Source: Bifidobacterium longum subsp. longum JCM 1217 | Lineage (GTDB): Bacteria > Actinomycetota > Actinomycetes > Actinomycetales > Bifidobacteriaceae | Direction of reading: 5' to 3' | DNA: 32,000 nucleotides | Assembly (NCBI RefSeq): GCF_000196555.1 | Contig: NC_015067.1 | Span: 1,350,001 to 1,382,000, forward strand | Shown: piece after piece, positions 1,829 through 9,804 of the stretch | Layout of the letters: each line of letters begins with the position of its first letter | Numbering within the stretch: the stretch's first letter is position 1 | The notes under the pieces: generated by a model | The model's database searches: none | Seen by the model: the letters and a program-made list of their open reading frames with translations, nothing else | What the model was told of the DNA's origin: nothing | Made by a program: the position numbers and the translations under genes

Positions 1829-1845
1829 CGAAAAGGTCCTGATTC
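1829..1845. terminator. Left half of a hairpin split by the IS3 insertion (stem CGAAAAGGTCCTGA plus loop remnant TTC)
   Basis: 1829..1842 CGAAAAGGTCCTGA is the exact reverse complement of 6809..6822 TCAGGACCTTTTCG. It lies 16 nt after the cyclophilin stop. Confidence 0.55.
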
Positions 1846-1869
1846 TGAACCGCACCCCGATTGTTGGAC
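1846..1869. repeat. IS3 left terminal inverted repeat (TGAACCGCACCCCGATTGTTGGAC)
   Basis: Matches the reverse complement of 6775..6798 (TGAACTGCGCCCCGATTGTTGGAC) with 2 mismatches. Confidence 0.8.
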
Positions 1870-1909
1870 TGAAGTAATTCAGATTCGATGATCGGAGGTG
1901 CGGTTTCTC

Positions 1910-2425
1910 ATGTGTAGGGATCGCAGGCGTCATTACGATGACGGTTTCATGCGGGTCGTCGCCGACCTGATCCGGGGCGGGGCCGGGAGGCGTTCTCTCG
2001 CCCGCCGGCTTGGCGCGCCCGTCAGTACCGCGGGAAAATGGGTGTTGTCATACCGGTTTGGCGGGGAGGCGGCGCTCATGGGAGAACGCGAAGGCAACAG
2101 GAGATACGACTACGAGACGAAGCTCGCGGCGGTGCGCGACCATGTGGAGCATGGGCTGACGAAGGCCGAAGTCATGGAGAAGTACAGGATCGCGGGTCCC
2201 GCCCCGTTGGAGCGCTGGTGCCGCGAGTACCGGTCCGGCGGCCCGGACGCGCTGCGTCCGAAACCGAAGGGCAGGCCCAGGGGCGCGAAATCCAAGCCGA
2301 GGCCGGCTCCCACAAGGGAACAGCTCCTTGAGGAGGAGAACGCGTACCTCAAGGCGAGGGTCGCGTACCTGGAAAAAGTCGACGCCCTGCTGGCGCGGAG
2401 ATCGGCAACCGGGACAGAACGGTGA
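1910..2425 (+). CDS. IS3-family transposase OrfA (HTH plus leucine zipper)
   Basis: GGAGG at 1894-1898 precedes ATG at 1910. RRHYDDGF...LARRLGAPVSTAGKWV resembles the IS3 OrfA HTH, and the C-terminal heptad region is LEEENAYLKARVAYLEKVDALLA. The ORF-track start at 1898 (GTG) overlaps the SD and is less likely. Confidence 0.8.
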   Translation: MCRDRRRHYDDGFMRVVADLIRGGAGRRSLARRLGAPVSTAGKWVLSYRFGGEAALMGEREGNRRYDYETKLAAVRDHVEHGLTKAEVMEKYRIAGPAPLERWCREYRSGGPDALRPKPKGRPRGAKSKPRPAPTREQLLEEENAYLKARVAYLEKVDALLARRSATGTER

Positions 2426-2997
2426 TCGTCTCCATGCTGGCGGGGCCGGGACATCGGCTCCGGCACCTGCTCAGGGCGGCCGGACTGGCGAAAAGCACGT
2501 ATTACCATCTTCTGTCGCATCCGGCCGCCGTGACCCGGCCGGACATCGAGCCGATGGTCGCCGAGATATTCGCGCGCACGCCCAACGGGTGCGGCCACCG
2601 GCAGATACGCATGTGCCTCGTGCACGAGTTCGGGGTGCGGGTGAGCCACAAGAGCGTGCTGAAGGTCATGAGGCGCATGGGCCTGGAATGCCGGATACGC
2701 AGGCCGAACCCGTACCGGAAATACAGCTCGTACCGGGACGAGACGGGCGCGAGGGCGGAGAACCTGCTGAACCGCGACTTCACGGCCGACCGGCCGTGGG
2801 TGAAGCTGGGCACGGACGTCACCGAGTTCAGGGTCGCCGACGGCAAGGCGTATCCGGCTCCCGTATACGATATGGGATCCAAGGAGATCGTGGCCTGGGA
2901 CGTCAGCCGGCATCCCGACATGGCCCAGCAGCGGCGCCTGCTCGCCATGCTCGAGGAGAAGCTGCCCGAAGACGCCGACCCGATCCCGCACTCCGAT
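2374..2997 (+). pseudogene. IS3-family transposase OrfB, 5' fragment (truncated at the HSD motif by the nested element)
   Basis: The -1 frame relative to orfA is open from the A-AAA-G site at 2373-2378. It reads ...LLRAAGLAKSTYYH...WVKLGTDVTEF...YDMGSKEIVAW...PIPHSD, then meets TAA supplied by the inserted element at 2998-3000. Confidence 0.8.
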
Positions 2998-3090
2998 TAA
3001 GCCGGGTTTGTTGTTAAGCCGGGGAACGGTTCGGGGTCTTGGTGGCTGGCCGTGTCCCATGTGGTTTCCCGGCTTAACGTTCCGGGTTAT
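2997..3090. repeat. Left 94-bp terminal inverted repeat of the RIT element
   Basis: I verified base by base that it is the exact reverse complement of 6344..6437. It contains TTAAGCCGGG at 2997-3006 and 3014-3023, and the inverted copy CCCGGCTTAA at 3068-3077. Confidence 0.95.
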
Positions 3091-3130
3091 GTTCGTCTTG
3101 TCCCATTTGATTCGAACGAAGGAGTTTGCC

Positions 3131-4333
3131 ATGGGTGAGACGACGGTTGGCCATGTCGCGGGCGAGGTGGTCCGCGCGCTTTACGGGGCCGGTTATATGG
3201 AATCCACCATAGGCCAGTACCGCAAGTCCATCAGGGCGTTGGAACGGTACGCCGGAGGCCCGGATGCGGTGTACACGCGTGGGTTGGGCGCGGGGTTCGC
3301 CGCGTCGACCTTCAGTGAGCGGACGGGCGGTTTCAGCAGGCAGCGGTGGTTCGATTACGGCAGGCTGGCGCGTTTGTGCGACTCGTATCTGCGGTCCGGT
3401 TCGGTGGACCTGGGCAAGTGGCGCAGGAGCAGGCTTGCGGAGCCGGTGGTTCCGGGTTTGGCCGTGGTCATGGAGCGTTGGGAGGCGTATCTCGCCGGTT
3501 CGGGACTGGCTTCGGCGACGGTGGGGCATTACCGTCGGATGGCGGGCTTGTTCCTCACGTGGCTGGAATCTCATGGGGTCGTGTCGTTGGACGGTTCGGA
3601 TGGCTCGCATGTGCTGGGGTTCCTGGCCGGGCTGCGTTCACGCTGGTCGGAGTCGTCGATGCGGCACGCCGCGTCGGACCTGCGCCCGTTGTTCAGATGG
3701 CTCGGGCGGGATGACCTGGCGGACGCGATCGGCCTGGCCGGCATACGCAGGACCCACGCGATCGCGGGAACGTTGCCCGACGACGAGCACCGCCGCTTGC
3801 TGGAGGCGTGCGCCTCGCGGTCGGTGCCGTCGAGGGACGCGGCGATCACCCTGCTGTCGCTGACGTGCGGGCTGAGGGCATGCGATGTGATCGGTCTGAG
3901 GATCGCCGACGTGGATTGGGATTCCATGAGCATAGGTCTGGTGCAGCGAAAGACGGGCAATCCGTTGACCGTGCCGATGACGGGACCGCTGGCCGCGAGG
4001 CTGGCGTCCTGGCTGTTGGACGAAAGGCCCGCCACCGACGACGACCGTGTGTTCGTGCGGTACAAGGCGCCCCATGTCGCGCTTCGGGGTCATTCATCGG
4101 TGTACGAGGCGATCAGCCGTGTCATGCGGCACGCCGGGCTCGGACGCCGGGGCGGTTCCAGGCTGTTGCGGCGCAACGCGGCGACGAGGATGCTGGAGGC
4201 GGCCACGCCGTTGCCGACGATCAGCGCGGTGCTTGGCCACGCCGACCCCGATTCCACACGCGTCTACATGGCCACGCACCGCGGGGGAATGCTCGCGTGC
4301 GTGCTGCCCGTGCCGGAAGGCGGATCGTCATGA
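3131..4333 (+). CDS. Tyrosine recombinase/integrase, first of the trio (RitA position)
   Basis: GAAGGAG at 3118-3124 precedes ATG at 3131. The N-terminal region is SAM-like. The C-terminal catalytic region reads CGLRACDVIGLRIADVD...GSRLLRRNAATRMLEAATPLPTISAVLGHADPDSTRVYM, with a conserved LGH...Y ending. The stop overlaps the next start (ATGA at 4330-4333). Confidence 0.85.
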   Translation: MGETTVGHVAGEVVRALYGAGYMESTIGQYRKSIRALERYAGGPDAVYTRGLGAGFAASTFSERTGGFSRQRWFDYGRLARLCDSYLRSGSVDLGKWRRSRLAEPVVPGLAVVMERWEAYLAGSGLASATVGHYRRMAGLFLTWLESHGVVSLDGSDGSHVLGFLAGLRSRWSESSMRHAASDLRPLFRWLGRDDLADAIGLAGIRRTHAIAGTLPDDEHRRLLEACASRSVPSRDAAITLLSLTCGLRACDVIGLRIADVDWDSMSIGLVQRKTGNPLTVPMTGPLAARLASWLLDERPATDDDRVFVRYKAPHVALRGHSSVYEAISRVMRHAGLGRRGGSRLLRRNAATRMLEAATPLPTISAVLGHADPDSTRVYMATHRGGMLACVLPVPEGGSS

Positions 4334-5295
4334 GACCCACGGAACACGGATTCGTCGGCCCGCTCGCCGGCGAATTGGAGGAGTACATCCGTTTCAAGGC
4401 GTCCATGGGCAGGCATGGCGCCACCCGCGTCCAGGTCCTGCGCTCGTTCGACCGGCATTGCCTCGAACACGGGGCCGTGCGTCTGGAGCGGGGCGTCGTG
4501 GAGCGATGGATCGCCCATAGGATCGACGCGAATCCCGGGGGTTGCCGCTCGTGGTTCTCGTACATCAGGGACTTCGGCAGGTGGATGCGACTGGCCCACG
4601 ATCCCGACGCGTACGTGCTCTCCGACCAGTGGAAGGCCGGATCCCCGCGTCCGACGCCGTACCTGCTGACGGACCGCGAGGCCGCCCTGTTCCTGCGGGC
4701 CGCGGGAACGTTGGAGTCTCCGTCGCCGTGGGCGTGGCAGTCTCGCGCGTTCTTCATGCTCATGGCCTGCTGCGGGCTGCGCACCCGAGAGGTCAGGAGA
4801 CTCGCCGTCGGGCACGTCGACCACAAGGCCCGTTCCATCGACGTGGTCGATTCCAAGGCCGGTCGCAGCCGCAGGCTGCCCGTGGGCGACGAGGTCGCCG
4901 CCGAACTGCTGGAATGCGACCAACGGTCCCGCGAACGCTTCGGAGACGACCGTCCCGCGTTCTTCGTCACCTCCACCGGCAATCCGGTCTCCCCGGGCAT
5001 GCCCGGCGTGGTGTTCCGCCGCGTCTGGACGCGGGCCGGGCTCGAGTGGCCACAAGCCGGCAAACGGCCCAGGCCCTATGATTTCCGGCACCGGTTCGCG
5101 TTCGCGAACATCGAGCGGTGGACTCGCGACGGCGTGGACGTGATGGCGATGCTGCCCTATCTGGCGGCCTACATGGGACACGCCGGCATCGACAGCACCC
5201 TCTACTACGTGCACGCCAGCCTCGATTTCATGGACGGATACGCGGACCTCGTCGCCGACGCCGAACGCGTGGTCCCGGAAACGGAGGAACCATGA
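4330..5295 (+). CDS. Tyrosine recombinase/integrase, second of the trio (RitB position)
   Basis: Starts MRPTEHGFVGPLAGELEEYIRF. Catalytic region: CCGLRTREVRRLAVGHVD...PYDFRHRFAFANI...YMGHAGIDSTLYYV. There are ATGA overlaps at both ends (4330-4333 and 5292-5295). Confidence 0.85.
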   Translation: MRPTEHGFVGPLAGELEEYIRFKASMGRHGATRVQVLRSFDRHCLEHGAVRLERGVVERWIAHRIDANPGGCRSWFSYIRDFGRWMRLAHDPDAYVLSDQWKAGSPRPTPYLLTDREAALFLRAAGTLESPSPWAWQSRAFFMLMACCGLRTREVRRLAVGHVDHKARSIDVVDSKAGRSRRLPVGDEVAAELLECDQRSRERFGDDRPAFFVTSTGNPVSPGMPGVVFRRVWTRAGLEWPQAGKRPRPYDFRHRFAFANIERWTRDGVDVMAMLPYLAAYMGHAGIDSTLYYVHASLDFMDGYADLVADAERVVPETEEP

Positions 5296-6347
5296 GCAAG
5301 GCAAGGAAAACGGCCGCCAGCTCCGGTGAACCGGACTTCTGGCGAGTCGCGCGCGACTGGCTGCACCACTGGCTGCCCAAGGTGCGGGGCAGCTCGCCGA
5401 AGACCGTCGAGGCGTACCGCATCGGCCTGGAATCCTACGTCCGATGGCTCGAAACCACGGAAGGCACGCAGCGCAGCCACATCGGTTTCGGGCATTTCGA
5501 CCGGGCGCGCCTGGGCCGGTGGGTCGAATGGATGCGGACCGAGCGCGGGTACTCGGACCGCACCATCATGCTGAGGATGACGACGATGCGCGTGTTCCTC
5601 GACCACGCGGGCCTCGAACACCCGGCATTGACCGCGCTGGGCAACGACGCGGCCGGCATACGTGTCAAACCACCCGCGCGCAAACCCGTCGACCACCTCG
5701 GGGAGGAGCACACCAAAGCGTTGCTGACCGCATGGGGCACCGGCGACGCCAAATCGCGCAGGAACCGCATGCTCCTGATCCTCATGTACGACACCGCCGC
5801 CAGGATCGGCGAACTCGCCGCACTGACCATCGCGGACGTGGGTATGGATAAGCCGGCCAGGGTCACGCTCACCGGCAAACGCGGCAAGAGCCGGGTCGTG
5901 CCCCTGGGAGAAAGGACACGAACCCACCTGGCCGCCTACCTCGAGGAATTCCATCCCGGACCGTCCATGCGCGACGGCGACGGGCCGTTGTTCCACTCGA
6001 CGAGGAACGGCGCCATCCAGCCGCTCTCCGTGGACCGGATCGACGAGATCCTCAAAACCGCGGCGGCCAGAGCACGCCGCGGGACGTGCCCGTCCATGCC
6101 CGAACGCGTCCACTGCCACCTGATCCGCCGGACCCGCGCCATGGACCTCTACCAACAGGGCGTGCCGCTACCGCTCATCATGCAACTGCTCGGCCACGAA
6201 AGCATGAGCACAACCAGCGCGTTCTACGCGTTCGCGACCCTCGACATGATGCGCAAAGCCGTCGATGCGGCCAACCCCGGCCCCGACCCCTCCAAGGAGA
6301 CATGGCTCAGCGAGCAACGACTCCGACAACTACACACCCTCAAATAA
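5292..6347 (+). CDS. Tyrosine recombinase/integrase, third of the trio (RitC position)
   Basis: Starts MSKARKTAASSGEPDFW. The core-binding region includes SPKTVEAYRIGLESYVRWL. Catalytic region: DTAARIGELAALTIADV...VHCHLIRRTRAMDLYQQGVPLPLIMQLLGHESMSTTSAFYAF. The TAA stop (6345-6347) lies inside the inner end of the right inverted repeat. Confidence 0.85.
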   Translation: MSKARKTAASSGEPDFWRVARDWLHHWLPKVRGSSPKTVEAYRIGLESYVRWLETTEGTQRSHIGFGHFDRARLGRWVEWMRTERGYSDRTIMLRMTTMRVFLDHAGLEHPALTALGNDAAGIRVKPPARKPVDHLGEEHTKALLTAWGTGDAKSRRNRMLLILMYDTAARIGELAALTIADVGMDKPARVTLTGKRGKSRVVPLGERTRTHLAAYLEEFHPGPSMRDGDGPLFHSTRNGAIQPLSVDRIDEILKTAAARARRGTCPSMPERVHCHLIRRTRAMDLYQQGVPLPLIMQLLGHESMSTTSAFYAFATLDMMRKAVDAANPGPDPSKETWLSEQRLRQLHTLK

Positions 6348-6437
6348 CCCGGAACGTTAAGCCGGGAAACCACATGGGACACGGCCAGCCACCAAGACCC
6401 CGAACCGTTCCCCGGCTTAACAACAAACCCGGCTTAA
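6344..6437. repeat. Right 94-bp terminal inverted repeat of the RIT element
   Basis: Exact reverse complement of 2997..3090. Motif copies are at 6357-6366 (TTAAGCCGGG), 6411-6420 and 6428-6437 (CCCGGCTTAA). Confidence 0.95.
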
Positions 6438-6469
6438 TCACTGTTAAACCGATGTCGGTTTAACAGTGA
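6438..6469. repeat. 32-bp palindrome TCACTGTTAAACC-GATGTC-GGTTTAACAGTGA (13-6-13 layout) abutting the right inverted repeat
   Basis: Read directly. The 13-nt arms are exact reverse complements. Each arm contains TGTTAAACCG, a 9/10 match to the subterminal TGTTAAGCCG of the 94-bp repeat. No counterpart exists at the left junction. Confidence 0.85.
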
Positions 6470-6752
6470 CATGGGCTGGCAGTACCGGCACCGGTGGTGG
6501 CGCGACCGGCTCGCGGGACTGAACATCCGCCAGTCCATGAGCAGGAAGGGCAACTGCATCGACAACGCCGCGACCGAGCAGGTGTTCGGCCACCTCAAGG
6601 ACGAGTTCCACGCCGGACGCGAGTTCGCCTCATACGAACAGTTCAAGAACGAACTGGACGCGTACATCATCCACTGGAACACCAAACGCCGCCAGATACG
6701 ACTGGAGGGACACACCCCGGAGGAATTCCGGAACATGTCCCCCACAGCCTAA
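6470..6752 (+). pseudogene. IS3-family transposase OrfB, 3' fragment
   Basis: MGWQYRHRWWRDRL...SMSRKGNCIDNAATEQVFGHLKDEF...WNTKRRQIRLEGHTPEEF is the typical C-terminal part of an IS3 integrase core (DDE glutamate region). It continues the frame broken at 2997. Confidence 0.85.
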
Positions 6753-6774
6753 TCAGGTACCCTTAATAAACCAC

Positions 6775-6798
6775 GTCCAACAATCGGGGCGCAGTTCA
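6775..6798. repeat. IS3 right terminal inverted repeat (GTCCAACAATCGGGGCGCAGTTCA)
   Basis: Its reverse complement matches 1846..1869 at 22/24 positions and it ends in CA. Confidence 0.8.
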
Positions 6799-6822
6799 GG
6801 TATTCCAGTCAGGACCTTTTCG
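6799..6822. terminator. Right half of the hairpin split by the IS3 insertion (loop remnant GGTATTCCAG plus stem TCAGGACCTTTTCG)
   Basis: 6809..6822 is the exact complement of 1829..1842. ATTC at 6802-6805 repeats ATTC at 1842-1845 and may be a target duplication, offset 3 nt from the IRR end. Confidence 0.5.
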
Positions 6823-6829
6823 TGTTCTT

Positions 6830-9194: not shown

Positions 9195-9327
9195 GCCAGT
9201 CACCTCCCTCGTCATGAAGTTCATTGTAGCCGCGAACCGGAGCCTTGTGCATTCACCTGTTCGCCATCATTGGTTCCACAACCGTTGTTGCCGTCATCAC
9301 CTTAGTCATTCAACCGGCCTAATCCGG

Positions 9328-9804
9328 TCAGGACGCCACTCCCGTCGAACCGAACCCGCGTTCGGCGCGATCGGATCCGGGCAGTGTCTCGGCCGGGATG
9401 AACCGAGCCTCAACATACCGCTGAATCACCAATTGAGCGATGCGATCGCCCGGATGGAAGACGGCGGTGTGCTTCGGATCGAGGTTGATCAGAGGCACCT
9501 TGATCTCGCCACGGTAGCCGGCATCAACGGTGCCAGGCGCGTTGAGCACGGTGACGCCCTGCTTGGCGGCCAGCCCGGAACGCGGATGCACCAACGCCAC
9601 GTAGCCCGCAGGTAGGGCGATGGCCACGCCGGTGGGAACCAGTGCCCGTTCAAAAGGCTTCAGCGTCACATCGACGGTGGTGATGAGGTCGGCACCGGCA
9701 TCGCCCGCGTGGGCATAGTGCAGCTGGGCCGGATGTTCGGGGTCGAGGCTCTTGACCAGGACCTCGGTGGATTCGGGCTCGTTGTAGGTCTCGTCGAACG
9801 CCAT
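9328..9804 (-). CDS. dut: dUTP diphosphatase (dUTPase)
   Basis: Trimeric dUTPase motifs: AGDAGADL, HPRSGLA, GTVDAGYRGEI, GDRIAQLV, RGFGSTG. The ATG at 9804-9802 overlaps the TGA of the upstream gene by 1 nt (TGATG). Confidence 0.9.
   Translation of the reverse strand: MAFDETYNEPESTEVLVKSLDPEHPAQLHYAHAGDAGADLITTVDVTLKPFERALVPTGVAIALPAGYVALVHPRSGLAAKQGVTVLNAPGTVDAGYRGEIKVPLINLDPKHTAVFHPGDRIAQLVIQRYVEARFIPAETLPGSDRAERGFGSTGVAS

Follow-up and report, generated by a model that had tools for sequence, protein, structure and literature searches.

The window analysed here, a stretch of 32,000 nucleotides from Bifidobacterium longum subsp. longum JCM 1217 (contig NC_015067.1, positions 1,350,001 to 1,382,000), contains a transposase gene that is split by a block of recombinase genes, which raises the question of what this block is and how it came to sit inside one particular codon. 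The insertion is 3473 bp long (2997-6469, counted from the first letter of the window) and separates GA from C of the Asp codon in the IS3 orfB motif H-S-D|M-G-W-Q-Y. The host IS3 is bounded by 25-nt terminal inverted repeats at 1845-1869 (plus strand) and 6775-6799 (minus strand) that are 92% complementary. Within these limits lie orfA, encoding an HTH protein (1898-2425, plus; Pfam HTH_28 and HTH_Tnp_1), the N-terminal part of orfB ending ...P-H-S-D(GA) (2422-2996, plus; HTH_21 and the start of rve), and the C-terminal part of orfB running from (D)MGWQY to the stop codon (6470-6752, plus; rve_2 and rve_3).

Uninterrupted copies of the same IS3 (L011 and L012) define the insertion site. In both, the N-terminal part of orfB runs straight into the C-terminal part found at 6470-6752, across the junction ...CCGCACTCCGA|CATGGGCTGG..., exactly as reconstructed in the original prediction, and these empty sites confirm its placement of the insert in the catalytic motif of orfB. 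L012, from another B. longum sample, shows this very chromosomal locus (PPIase - IS3 - RelA) without the insert, and the window minus 2997..6469 aligns with it over 4579 bp at 99.65% identity and without gaps. Once rejoined, OrfB matches Pfam rve from end to end (3-102 of 102). Beyond the ambiguous GA, there is no target duplication at the insert junctions. A second filled and empty pair is found at the GH101/LysR locus, where L164 carries the insert and L168 has the site intact. The IS3 copies that carry the element are disabled by it.

The insert opens with a left inverted repeat (IRL, 2997-3090, plus), and its partner (IRR, 6344-6437, minus) overlaps the stop codon of the third recombinase gene at its inner end. 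The repeat is perfect over 94 nt, as had been claimed, and when the GA/TC dinucleotides are counted the arms at 2995-3090 and 6344-6439 are complementary at 96/96 positions. A motif, TTAAGCCGGG, occurs in IRL at 2997-3006 and 3014-3023, and inverted at 3068-3077; six copies of the repeat motif are present against 1.1 expected by chance. Between the repeats there are three recombinase ORFs only, of ritA type (3131-4333, plus, 400 aa; Pfam Phage_integrase 6.6e-23 and a SAM-like N-terminal domain), ritB type (4330-5295, plus, 321 aa; 6e-17) and ritC type (5292-6347, plus, 351 aa; 1.3e-23). The tandem array of three tyrosine recombinase genes proposed earlier is therefore supported by profile matches in 3/3 proteins (E 1e-17 to 1e-23), and the translations, inspected by eye, show the Arg, His and Tyr residues of the motifs. 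The genes are joined by ATGA overlaps at 4330-4333 (ritA/ritB) and 5292-5295 (ritB/ritC). In RitA, Pfam finds one SAM-like domain (residues 114-197) and assigns nothing to the roughly 110 residues at the N-terminus; Smyshlyaev et al. (2021) describe two consecutive core-binding domains in RitA and an extra C-terminal helix in RitC. Against trios from Mesorhizobium loti and Sphingobium amiense plasmids, which were picked by architecture and not from a curated RIT list, BLASTP matched RitA best to the first gene (85-89 bits against 23-48), RitB to the second (71-82 against 26-39) and RitC to the third (74-82 against 24-40).

Judged by its sequence, the insert is an intact copy of an element already described in B. 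longum, the mobile integrase cassette (MIC) of strains DJO10A and NCC2705 (Lee et al. 2008, BMC Genomics 9:247, PMC2430713), and this cassette is a RIT element. The 96-nt inverted repeat given in that paper is identical to both window arms by exact string comparison (96/96), and its 20-bp palindrome, TTAAACCGACATCGGTTTAA, is identical to that of the window on the opposite strand. Both elements have three contiguous integrase genes with IS3 sequence on either side. The MIC is described there as 'sandwiched by two IS3-type IS elements', whereas here a single IS3 is cut at one codon and the empty sites match. The text of the paper reports three to four copies per genome, one of them bordered by a deletion, and makes no mention of 6-bp spacers, orientation polymorphism or a target rule.

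RIT elements (Van Houdt et al. 2009, 2012; Ricker et al. 2013) likewise have the A-B-C gene order, three recombinase subfamilies and 4-bp ATGA overlaps, and share with the window element a length of about 3.5 kb, flanking inverted repeats, an adjacent palindrome and several identical copies per genome. Overlaps of 4-8 bp between the three ORFs serve as a RIT criterion (PMC3414803, PMC2864759), and the window element has such overlaps together with three catalytic domains in A-B-C order, a repeat-flanked unit with a palindrome, and multiple copies. RITs are occasionally found inside transposase genes (IS66 tnpA, Tn6049 tnpA). Those published from proteobacteria are reported from radC, IS66 or Tn6049 genes, with 28-34-bp repeats, in contrast to the 90-96-bp repeats and conserved IS3 Asp-codon target of the clade to which the window element belongs. 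The original prediction had named both RIT elements and mobile integrase cassettes, a reading that stands on the repeat and palindrome matches to the published MIC and on A/B/C orthology with the proteobacterial trios. Its statement that the movement mechanism and target rules had not been worked out is in line with a table in a 2023 review (PMC10214605), in which RIT target specificity and movement are listed as not tested. The IS3 Asp-codon target rule, the origin of the spacers and the orientation polymorphism were not found described in the literature consulted, although parts of them may already appear in earlier work (Ricker et al. 2013; Lee & O'Sullivan 2010).

The RitA sequence is shared exactly with an allele that has entries in 8332 blocks of a public collection, and a single B. 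longum chromosome (LN824140.1) encodes the identical protein four times (L005-L008). A scan of genome contigs with RitA gave no match under Bifidobacterium, its sole near-identical match being a contig binned as Collinsella. That the window carries a functional copy, as was suggested, is plausible, since the ORFs are intact, the inverted repeats perfect and the RitA allele widespread, and since the same IS3 occurs filled, empty and with the insert in both orientations.

The insert had been predicted to end at an inverted repeat on both sides. This holds on the left, but the right end lies beyond IRR, where a palindrome module at 6438-6469 had been overlooked; the repeats enclose 3441-3445 bp only, and the full unit including the module measures 3473 bp. 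The module is about 32 bp long, lies outside the repeats and consists of a 6-bp spacer, a 20-bp palindrome and a second 6-bp spacer. These 32 bp are missing from the empty site and hence belong to the inserted DNA. In the window they form a perfect palindrome, TCACTG-TTAAACCG-ATGT-CGGTTTAA-CAGTGA (fold -16.7 kcal/mol, z = -6.4), made up of spacer B (TCACTG, the reverse complement of CAGTGA; 6438-6443, plus), the palindrome P that corresponds to the published one (TTAAACCG-ATGT-CGGTTTAA; 6444-6463, unstranded) and spacer C (CAGTGA; 6464-6469, plus). The arms of P are one base off the repeat motif TTAAGCCG. On the other side of the element, spacer A (CTCCGA; 2991-2996, plus) is the final 6 bp of the target itself; it begins at base three of the His codon and ends with GA of the Asp codon.

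P lies one 6-mer from the end of an inverted repeat, on the C-part side, in 120 of 122 copies in public contigs; in L078, one of the two exceptions, the element is absent beside P. The loop of the palindrome is ATGT in 73 and ACAT in 47 of 120 copies. P as a separate miniature element or as a feature of the target was rejected, since 0/122 are lone palindromes in an intact IS3 and the empty sites are without P.

The choice of target was examined in a comparison set of about 170 related copies. Near-identical elements occupy the same codon in at least 15 diverged B. longum variants of the IS3 N-part and in front of 33 C-part starts, which have a median identity of 50% across their first 30 nt, and similarity to the element ends sharply at its boundaries. 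By eye, the target flanks show only weak likeness to the arms of the inverted repeats or of P. RIT relatives in other Actinomycetota, among them Rhodococcus, Dactylosporangium and Acidimicrobiia, show the same layout at 21 junctions; their RitA is about 47-52% identical, and three rejoined relative flanks scanned against Pfam gave complete HTH_21+rve+rve_3 proteins. These observations bear on whether the cassette moves at all. An inert passenger might have entered a single ancestral IS3 and then been copied as a composite, by IS3 transposase acting in trans or by homologous recombination and gene conversion. The window's IS3 type does carry the cassette at three chromosomal loci, trans mobilisation is possible because the host IS3 keeps both terminal repeats, and gene conversion between copies also shuffles these regions, as the mosaic C-part starts at one locus reveal. 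Passive copying nevertheless seems scarcely credible, given that one and the same IS3 copy, at one chromosomal site, exists in filled and empty form, that host variants are only about 50% identical near the junction with homology breaking off exactly at the element ends, and that relatives with about 50% protein identity, in other classes of bacteria, sit at the same codon.

The spacers carry a further record. Spacer A, scored in complete elements, is constant for each N-part variant, although only two variants are represented by multiple copies (12/12 and 4/4), and in the window's IS3 type it is the 6-mer found in all four uninterrupted copies. Spacer C of the window is foreign to its IS3, whose own 6-mer is CTCCGA, and is absent from the empty sites; CAGTGA is spacer A of another IS3 variant, for example in L008. 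Spacer C also differs among copies within one IS3 type or C-part type and at a single locus. The spacer A set comprises TTCCGA, CAGTGA, CTCCGA, CTCGGA, CAGCGA and CGGCGA, and against 256 possible NNNNGA sequences it includes C in 119/120 copies and the reverse complement of B in 118/120. B is thus the reverse complement of a His-Ser-Asp-type 6-mer that serves as an IS3 spacer A, the remaining two copies being different or unmatched. We infer that the two 6-mers flanking the palindrome were each copied from the left 6-mer of some other IS3 target, in a carry-over like that of Tn554 and SE elements. A 6-mer on the N-side of one IS3 type cannot reach the palindrome side of another type by homologous recombination, a further argument against passive copying.

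The spacers also resemble the coupling sequences of Tn916 and CTnDOT, variable flank-derived stretches of 6-7 bp that travel with the element. A route of this type, with staggered cuts in the flanks, a double-stranded circle and a 6-bp heteroduplex, would make the spacers relics of earlier sites and let either junction inherit either 6-mer. It gains from the finding that C is the native CTCCGA in 3/8 copies of the window's IS3 type (L161, L164, L165) and that B of L161 is also the reverse complement of CTCCGA, which suggests that element-side spacers are sometimes rewritten with the current target. A symmetric heteroduplex, however, predicts an imported 6-mer at the left junction about half the time, against the constancy of A and its identity with the 6-mer of the uninterrupted copies, which point to a strand-biased reaction. 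Tn916 and CTnDOT also differ from the window element in being conjugative, in using one integrase with Xis, in their low or different target specificity and in having imported sequence at either junction. We regard this route as unlikely. Contigs of 3-4 kb had no direct terminal overlap, and neither a circular junction nor a circular contig was found among them. In the contigs compared, a joint of P, spacer and IRL was absent outside forms with two palindromes, some of which may be assembly artefacts from mixed orientations in a sample. For RITs, enrichment in exonuclease-resistant DNA has been reported with the circle junction undetected, and hairpin intermediates were suggested (PMC5737581).

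The reading that we favour, and consider probable, is that the cassette is a site-specific parasite of IS3 elements in which a 3473-bp unit recombines through a site made of P arm, spacer and IR arm, with strand bias and carry-over of 6-mers. The basis for this model of movement is comparative throughout, and the lack of a circular junction or circular contig in the contigs compared counts against it. The mobile unit would consist, in order, of IRL, ritA, ritB, ritC, IRR, spacer B, P and spacer C, and would integrate directly after GA of the second catalytic Asp codon of an IS3-family transposase (H-S/H/T-D|x-G-x-Q-Y). In the predicted recombination site, 'P arm - 6-bp spacer - IR arm', both arms would be versions of one 8-10-bp motif, TTAARCCG, in inverted arrangement, as in the core site of a tyrosine recombinase; its partner would be the target site 'N-side - YNNNGA - C-side'. 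Strand-biased exchange would leave the target's 6 bp (A) at the left junction and the element-borne 6 bp (C) at the right, and a departing element would take with it a copy of the left 6 bp of its site, as reported for Tn554 and SE elements. The palindrome would create two mirror-image sites, P-C-IRL in the joined form and IRR-B-P on the other strand, so that insertion would be possible in either orientation and spacer B would preserve, as its reverse complement, the 6-mer of an earlier donor. An intermediate in the form of a hairpin or a folded single strand may also be envisaged, with IRL paired to IRR, B paired to C and P closing the end.

The writing of spacer B is the weakest step of this model, because matches between B and the reverse complement of the current A come close to the number expected at random. 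For the same reason, in-place inversion that rewrites B from the current A was rejected, a single locus, L161, having such a B. An origin of B-P-C as a perfect palindrome, for example by hairpin-end replication, was likewise discarded, as there is no excess of copies in which C equals the reverse complement of B (28 observed, 32 expected).

Like the window element, Tn554 and SE elements are site-specific transposons that carry several tyrosine-recombinase genes and make no target duplication. To the right of a new insertion they leave 6 bp copied from the left flank of the donor, a pattern with which the native A and imported C of the window element would be compatible. In contrast to the window element, they are without long terminal inverted repeats and a palindrome module, and they need a non-recombinase protein (TnpC, Srap, GinD or Tfp). 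The window element encodes none, and for want of this accessory gene it was not filed as a Tn554/SE member. By analogy only with integron attC and CTX-phi attP(+) with XerCD, the imperfect palindrome could fold a single strand into a tyrosine-recombinase site, and an attC-like exchange limited to one pair of strands, with replication as the means of resolution, would yield a strand bias like the one proposed here. More tentatively, and with rather more doubt than assent, an entire actinobacterial clade of RIT elements might be a dedicated hyperparasite of IS3-family elements that recognises DNA coding for the second catalytic Asp motif, with strand-biased integration, possibly by way of a folded single strand, at a mirror-symmetric double att site formed by the repeat ends and the palindrome, and with spacers that record past hosts. 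If so, the three recombinases may reflect three half-sites, namely the element terminus, the palindrome or subterminal motif, and the target.

The interior of the element occurs in its two orientations in 34 and 33 copies, and the window's own locus is found in both. Between L007 and both L020 and L064, the flanks are collinear and the interior is inverted while B and C are unchanged, and in the proposed model the interior would flip in place between the 96-bp repeats as a separate process. Loop orientation follows interior orientation in part only (Fisher p = 0.014, from samples that are not independent), so several processes must overlap. The near-equal orientations, at a single locus as well, would suit a resident switch that turns the IS3 transposase off and on by inversion or excision, or controls its own expression by flipping, and is not primarily a transposon. 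Any observed 6-mer left behind would still encode Ser-Asp, so that orfB would be repaired by excision. A scan of the gap between IRL and ritA and its surroundings gave no sigma-70-like promoter, and ritABC might accordingly depend on IS3 read-through, but the search used a crude consensus that may not suit Bifidobacterium. A switch as the primary role is nonetheless very unlikely, because spread over many IS3 variants and loci shows real transposition and an excision event has not been seen. No excision footprint (Ser codon TCN changed to AGY) was present, a comparison of low power that covers the four uninterrupted copies of the window's IS3 type that were available, all CTCCGA, with one contig for each intact OrfB protein looked up. 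With this uniform 6-mer the empty sites may never have been occupied, and cut-out and copy-out movement look alike.

Beyond single insertions, the site-specific parasite that we favour may also rearrange its hosts. L003 consists of an N-part, the element and the inverted N-part of another IS3 bearing that IS3's native 6-mer, and L078 and L163 consist of an inverted C-part, B-P-C and a C-part, with the element absent. If IRR-B-P recombined, these would be the two reciprocal products expected from an internal IRR-B-P and a second IS3 target. With filled and empty alleles, both orientations and many spacer states in public assemblies, the B. longum cassette amounts to a natural experiment in which these alleles and states define candidate attachment sites and cleavage polarity. 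Lee et al. (2008, PMC2430713) proposed genome rearrangement through the cassette repeats, and two loci of hybrid structure, L162 and L166, likewise suggest that the 3.4-kb repeats supplied by the element rearrange the genome of this widely used probiotic species.

The insert lies in an IS3-family insertion sequence at about 1846-6799, which has terminal inverted repeats at 1845-1869 and 6775-6799, an orfA gene at 1898-2425 and an orfB gene split into an N-part (2422-2996) and a C-part (6470-6752). The two orfB parts were joined and the 285-aa product was used as the query for intact IS3 transposases, which were found at 100% and 99% identity, one cluster comprising 4949 member sequences. At the DNA level two intact copies (L011 and L012) are uninterrupted, ...CCGCACTCCGA running directly into CATGGGCTGG..., and L012 is the window's own chromosomal locus (peptidyl-prolyl isomerase, IS3, RelA/SpoT). 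With 2997..6469 removed, the window aligns with L012 over 4579 bp at 99.65% identity without a gap, so the boundaries proposed in the original prediction are exact. The inserted DNA is 3473 bp long and only an ambiguous GA is duplicated. The rejoined OrfB covers positions 3-102 of the 102-position Pfam rve profile, and the break falls immediately after the Asp of H-S-D, the second catalytic Asp of IS3-family DDE transposases.

The IS3 itself sits within a 15-bp perfect inverted repeat (1828-1842, ACGAAAAGGTCCTGA; 6809-6823, TCAGGACCTTTTCGT) located between convergent PPIase and relA genes, and looks to have entered a bidirectional terminator hairpin at its loop. The ATTC at 1842-1845 is repeated just beyond the right IS end, and the pair may be a 4-bp target duplication. 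Further left, a 322-aa ORF (233-1201) encodes a protein whose C-terminal two thirds are almost all Ser, Thr, Gly, Asn and Asp, and contains degenerate DNA repeats about 90 nt apart (824-874, 914-964 and 995-1045).

The insert carries three recombinase genes, ritA (3131-4333, 400 aa), ritB (4330-5295, 321 aa) and ritC (5292-6347, 351 aa), with an ATGA overlap at both junctions. All three products match the Pfam Phage_integrase catalytic domain, as expected of the tandem tyrosine recombinases read from the sequence, and the first and third also have a SAM-like N-terminal domain. The inverted repeat (IR) arms, 2995-3090 (IRL) and 6344-6439 (IRR), are complementary at 96/96 positions, each with three copies of the motif TTAAGCCGGG (six in the window versus 1.1 expected by chance). 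The repeats are thus perfect, as had been claimed, but the right one ends at 6437/6439 and not at 6469; the final 32 bp of the insert, previously overlooked, form a perfect palindrome whose 14-bp stem closes on a 4-nt loop. The folding energy of the single strand is -16.7 kcal/mol (z = -6.4), and since the palindrome is missing from the empty site it belongs to the mobile unit. The left junction reads ...CAC TCC GA / TTAAGCCGGG..., and the right end reads ...CCCGGCTTAA / TCACTG / TTAAACCG ATGT CGGTTTAA / CAGTGA / C ATG GGC TGG..., the slashes setting off two 6-bp spacers, B and C, on either side of the palindrome core P. The 6-mer to the left of the element is spacer A.

This object is already known. 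Lee et al. 2008 (PMC2430713) described mobile integrase cassettes (MICs) in B. longum, four copies in DJO10A and three in NCC2705, each with three contiguous integrase genes enclosed by a 96-bp inverted repeat together with a 20-bp palindrome and, in their words, 'sandwiched by two IS3-type IS elements'; a deletion that appeared during culture borders one of the copies. The inverted repeat printed there shows no mismatch in 96 positions to window 2995-3090 or to 6344-6439 read as reverse complement, and the published palindrome is the window's, on the opposite strand. The element is equally a recombinase-in-trio (RIT) element by the published criteria: its genes follow the order A-B-C and overlap by 4 bp, it is about 3.5 kb long, it has IRs on its flanks plus a palindrome, and a genome holds it in several identical copies. 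Against two proteobacterial plasmid trios, each of the three proteins scores best with the gene in the same position (71-89 bits, versus 23-48 bits for the other genes). The MIC/RIT reading first made from the sequence is therefore correct, and the locus is a good entry point into the mechanism of RIT elements.

Further copies were collected from ten places encoding an identical RitA, 105 metagenome contigs with the palindrome, and ten places encoding an identical truncated C-terminal part of the window's IS3. An IR end and a 6-mer flank one side of the palindrome in 120 of 122 copies; on the other side there is almost always a 6-mer followed by an IS3 C-part starting (Asp)-x-Gly-x-x-Tyr, a few flanks being degraded or deleted. 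None of the 122 is a lone palindrome in an otherwise intact IS3. The same codon is occupied in at least 15 N-part variants and 33 C-part starts, the latter with a median identity of 50% over the first 30 nt, and the similarity of the element stops exactly at its boundaries. Two IR-end variants, ...CAAACCCGGCTTAA and ...CAAAACCGGCTTAA, coexist in B. longum metagenomes (L013-L117), indicating that at least two element sublineages circulate.

When one genome per species was scanned with RitA, relatives with 47-52% identity turned up in Rhodococcus, Dactylosporangium, Nocardioides, Gordonia, Acidimicrobiia and other Actinomycetota. Twenty-one of their junctions have the layout of the B. longum element, in both orientations: an IR end (...GGCATAA or ...GGCGTAA), a 6-mer TCNNNN, the palindrome [TC]TAA[AG]CCG-N4-CGG[TC]TTA[AG], a 6-mer NNNNGA, and codons for D-(R/H/A/K)-G-x-(Q/E/N)-(Y/F). 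When the flanks of three relatives (an Acidimicrobiaceae MAG, Dactylosporangium and Rhodococcus) were rejoined, they gave complete HTH_21+rve+rve_3/rve_2 proteins. A palindrome module and insertion at the IS3 Asp codon thus characterise a clade that reaches beyond B. longum. Proteobacterial RITs have been published in radC, IS66 tnpA and Tn6049 tnpA, so different RIT clades may each have their own conserved target. In the literature on MIC and RIT elements that we covered, which did not include Ricker et al. 2013 or Lee & O'Sullivan 2010, we found neither a single-codon target common to the actinobacterial clade nor the spacer rule, orientation polymorphism and filled/empty alleles described below; we claim no priority. 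In the same scan no Bifidobacterium-titled record was matched. One 3.7-kb contig (L118, CABSUD010000179.1) from a MAG labelled uncultured Collinsella encodes a RitA with 98% identity to that of B. longum, and is either a mis-binned multi-copy repeat or a real transfer between gut Actinomycetota. In the Acidimicrobiaceae relative L148, flanking inverted repeats of 446 bp (5495-5940 and 9197-9642, 99.6%) arise because an identical IS3 C-part and palindrome lie on both sides.

The spacers follow a rule of their own. Spacer A is constant within an N-part variant (12/12 and 4/4 in the two variants with more than one copy), and in the window's IS3 type it equals the 6-mer of uninterrupted copies. 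Spacer C differs between copies in the same IS3 type, even between copies at a single chromosomal locus. The spacer-A set (TTCCGA, CAGTGA, CTCCGA, CTCGGA, CAGCGA and CGGCGA) consists of the ends of His-Ser/Gly-Asp codons, and to this set belong C in 119 of 120 copies and the reverse complement of B in 118 of 120. In the window A is the native CTCCGA, while B (TCACTG) and C (CAGTGA) both correspond to the native 6-mer of a different IS3 variant. B is the reverse complement of C, giving a perfect palindrome, in 28 copies with 32 expected, which is no excess, and B matches the reverse complement of the current A at the chance rate only. In L002 the 6-mer left of the element (about 5861-5866) is TTAGGA, giving codons CAT TAG GA with a stop replacing Ser, and an IR end with palindrome (3604-3660) lies about 2.2 kb upstream of the element.

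Relative to the IS3 and the palindrome, the interior lies with its ritC end beside P in 34 copies and its ritA end there in 33. Single loci show this too: both flanks of L007 are collinear with those of L020 and L064, and B and C are the same, yet the interior is turned round; at the window's own locus the window, L160 and L165 have one orientation and L161 and L046 the other. Orientation of the palindrome loop follows that of the interior only partly (p = 0.014). In the window's IS3 type the element is found at three chromosomal loci, two of which also have an intact-site allele (L012 and L168), and these sequences indicate that the element moves independently of IS3. Rare rearranged forms also occur. 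L003 has an N-part, the element, and then a second N-part, inverted, which comes from a different IS3 variant and has the CAGCGA native to it; L078 and L163 have an inverted C-part, B-P-C and a C-part without the element. As in L148, a palindrome is found on both sides of the element in six B. longum contigs (L001, L024, L041, L045, L100 and L116), some of which may be genuinely rearranged or else misassembled from mixed orientations.

All spacers share one orientation, YNNNGA preceded by the N-part or a P arm and followed by an IR arm or the C-part, so that four kinds of site around a spacer (s) can be listed: N-s-C (empty target), N-s-IR (left junction), P-s-C (right junction) and P-s-IR. 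A single motif underlies both the P arm (TTAAACCG) and the IR arm (TTAAGCCG), which face each other across 6 bp in P-s-IR, the layout of a tyrosine-recombinase core site. P-s-IR would then be the attachment site of the element. An integrated copy would hold it once internally, as IRR-B-P on the bottom strand, and a second version (P-C-IRL) would arise when the ends join, giving CGGTTTAA-NNNNGA-TTAAGCCGG with the donor's spacer A as the 6-mer. The two versions would be mirror images around the palindrome, and insertion through either would yield both orientations, with P always on the C-side and B always the reverse complement of a target 6-mer.

Tn554 and the SE elements are reported to leave the donor's left 6 bp on the right of a new insertion, with no target duplication (PMC10214605), a flank-carrying rule that the spacer pattern here would fit, and judging from the spacers a site-specific reaction of this type can account for them. 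Homologous recombination has no means of carrying 6 bp that lie on the N-side in one IS3 over to the palindrome side in a different one. Mosaic C-part starts at one locus show that gene conversion between copies also occurs. A symmetric heteroduplex of the Tn916 type would not keep the target's 6-mer always at the left junction. That constancy speaks for a reaction in which only one pair of strands is exchanged, or for some comparable bias, as in SEs. The most likely scheme is a P-s-IR attachment site used in a strand-biased exchange, in which recombination between the internal site and a second IS3 would give L003 and L078/L163 as its reciprocal products. Flips of the interior in place, which leave A and B unchanged, may come from crossing-over within the IRs, whether catalysed by the recombinases or due to homologous recombination. 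More speculatively, a single strand could fold back on itself, IRL pairing with IRR and B lying opposite C with P capping the end, and so recreate the attachment site without its complement, as integron attC and CTX-phi attP(+) do. RIT DNA has been reported as enriched in exonuclease-resistant DNA with no detectable circle junction (PMC5737581), which would fit a folded form. No circle junction was seen in our comparison contigs, and no excision footprint in the four uninterrupted copies.

Hybrid loci in L162 and L166 (JGI 3300029356 and 3300029420) join the N-part of the sucrose-phosphorylase-locus IS3, the element, and the C-part of the window's IS3 beside RelA, pointing to chromosomal rearrangement between two element copies, in agreement with the link between cassette and genome rearrangement made by Lee et al. 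2008 (PMC2430713). IS21-family elements (IstA/IstB) are present inside ritB in L009 (7200-10762) and inside the IS3 N-part in L168 (3076-5345). The element in L035 is 4921 bp long compared with 3441 bp, presumably through another nested insertion.
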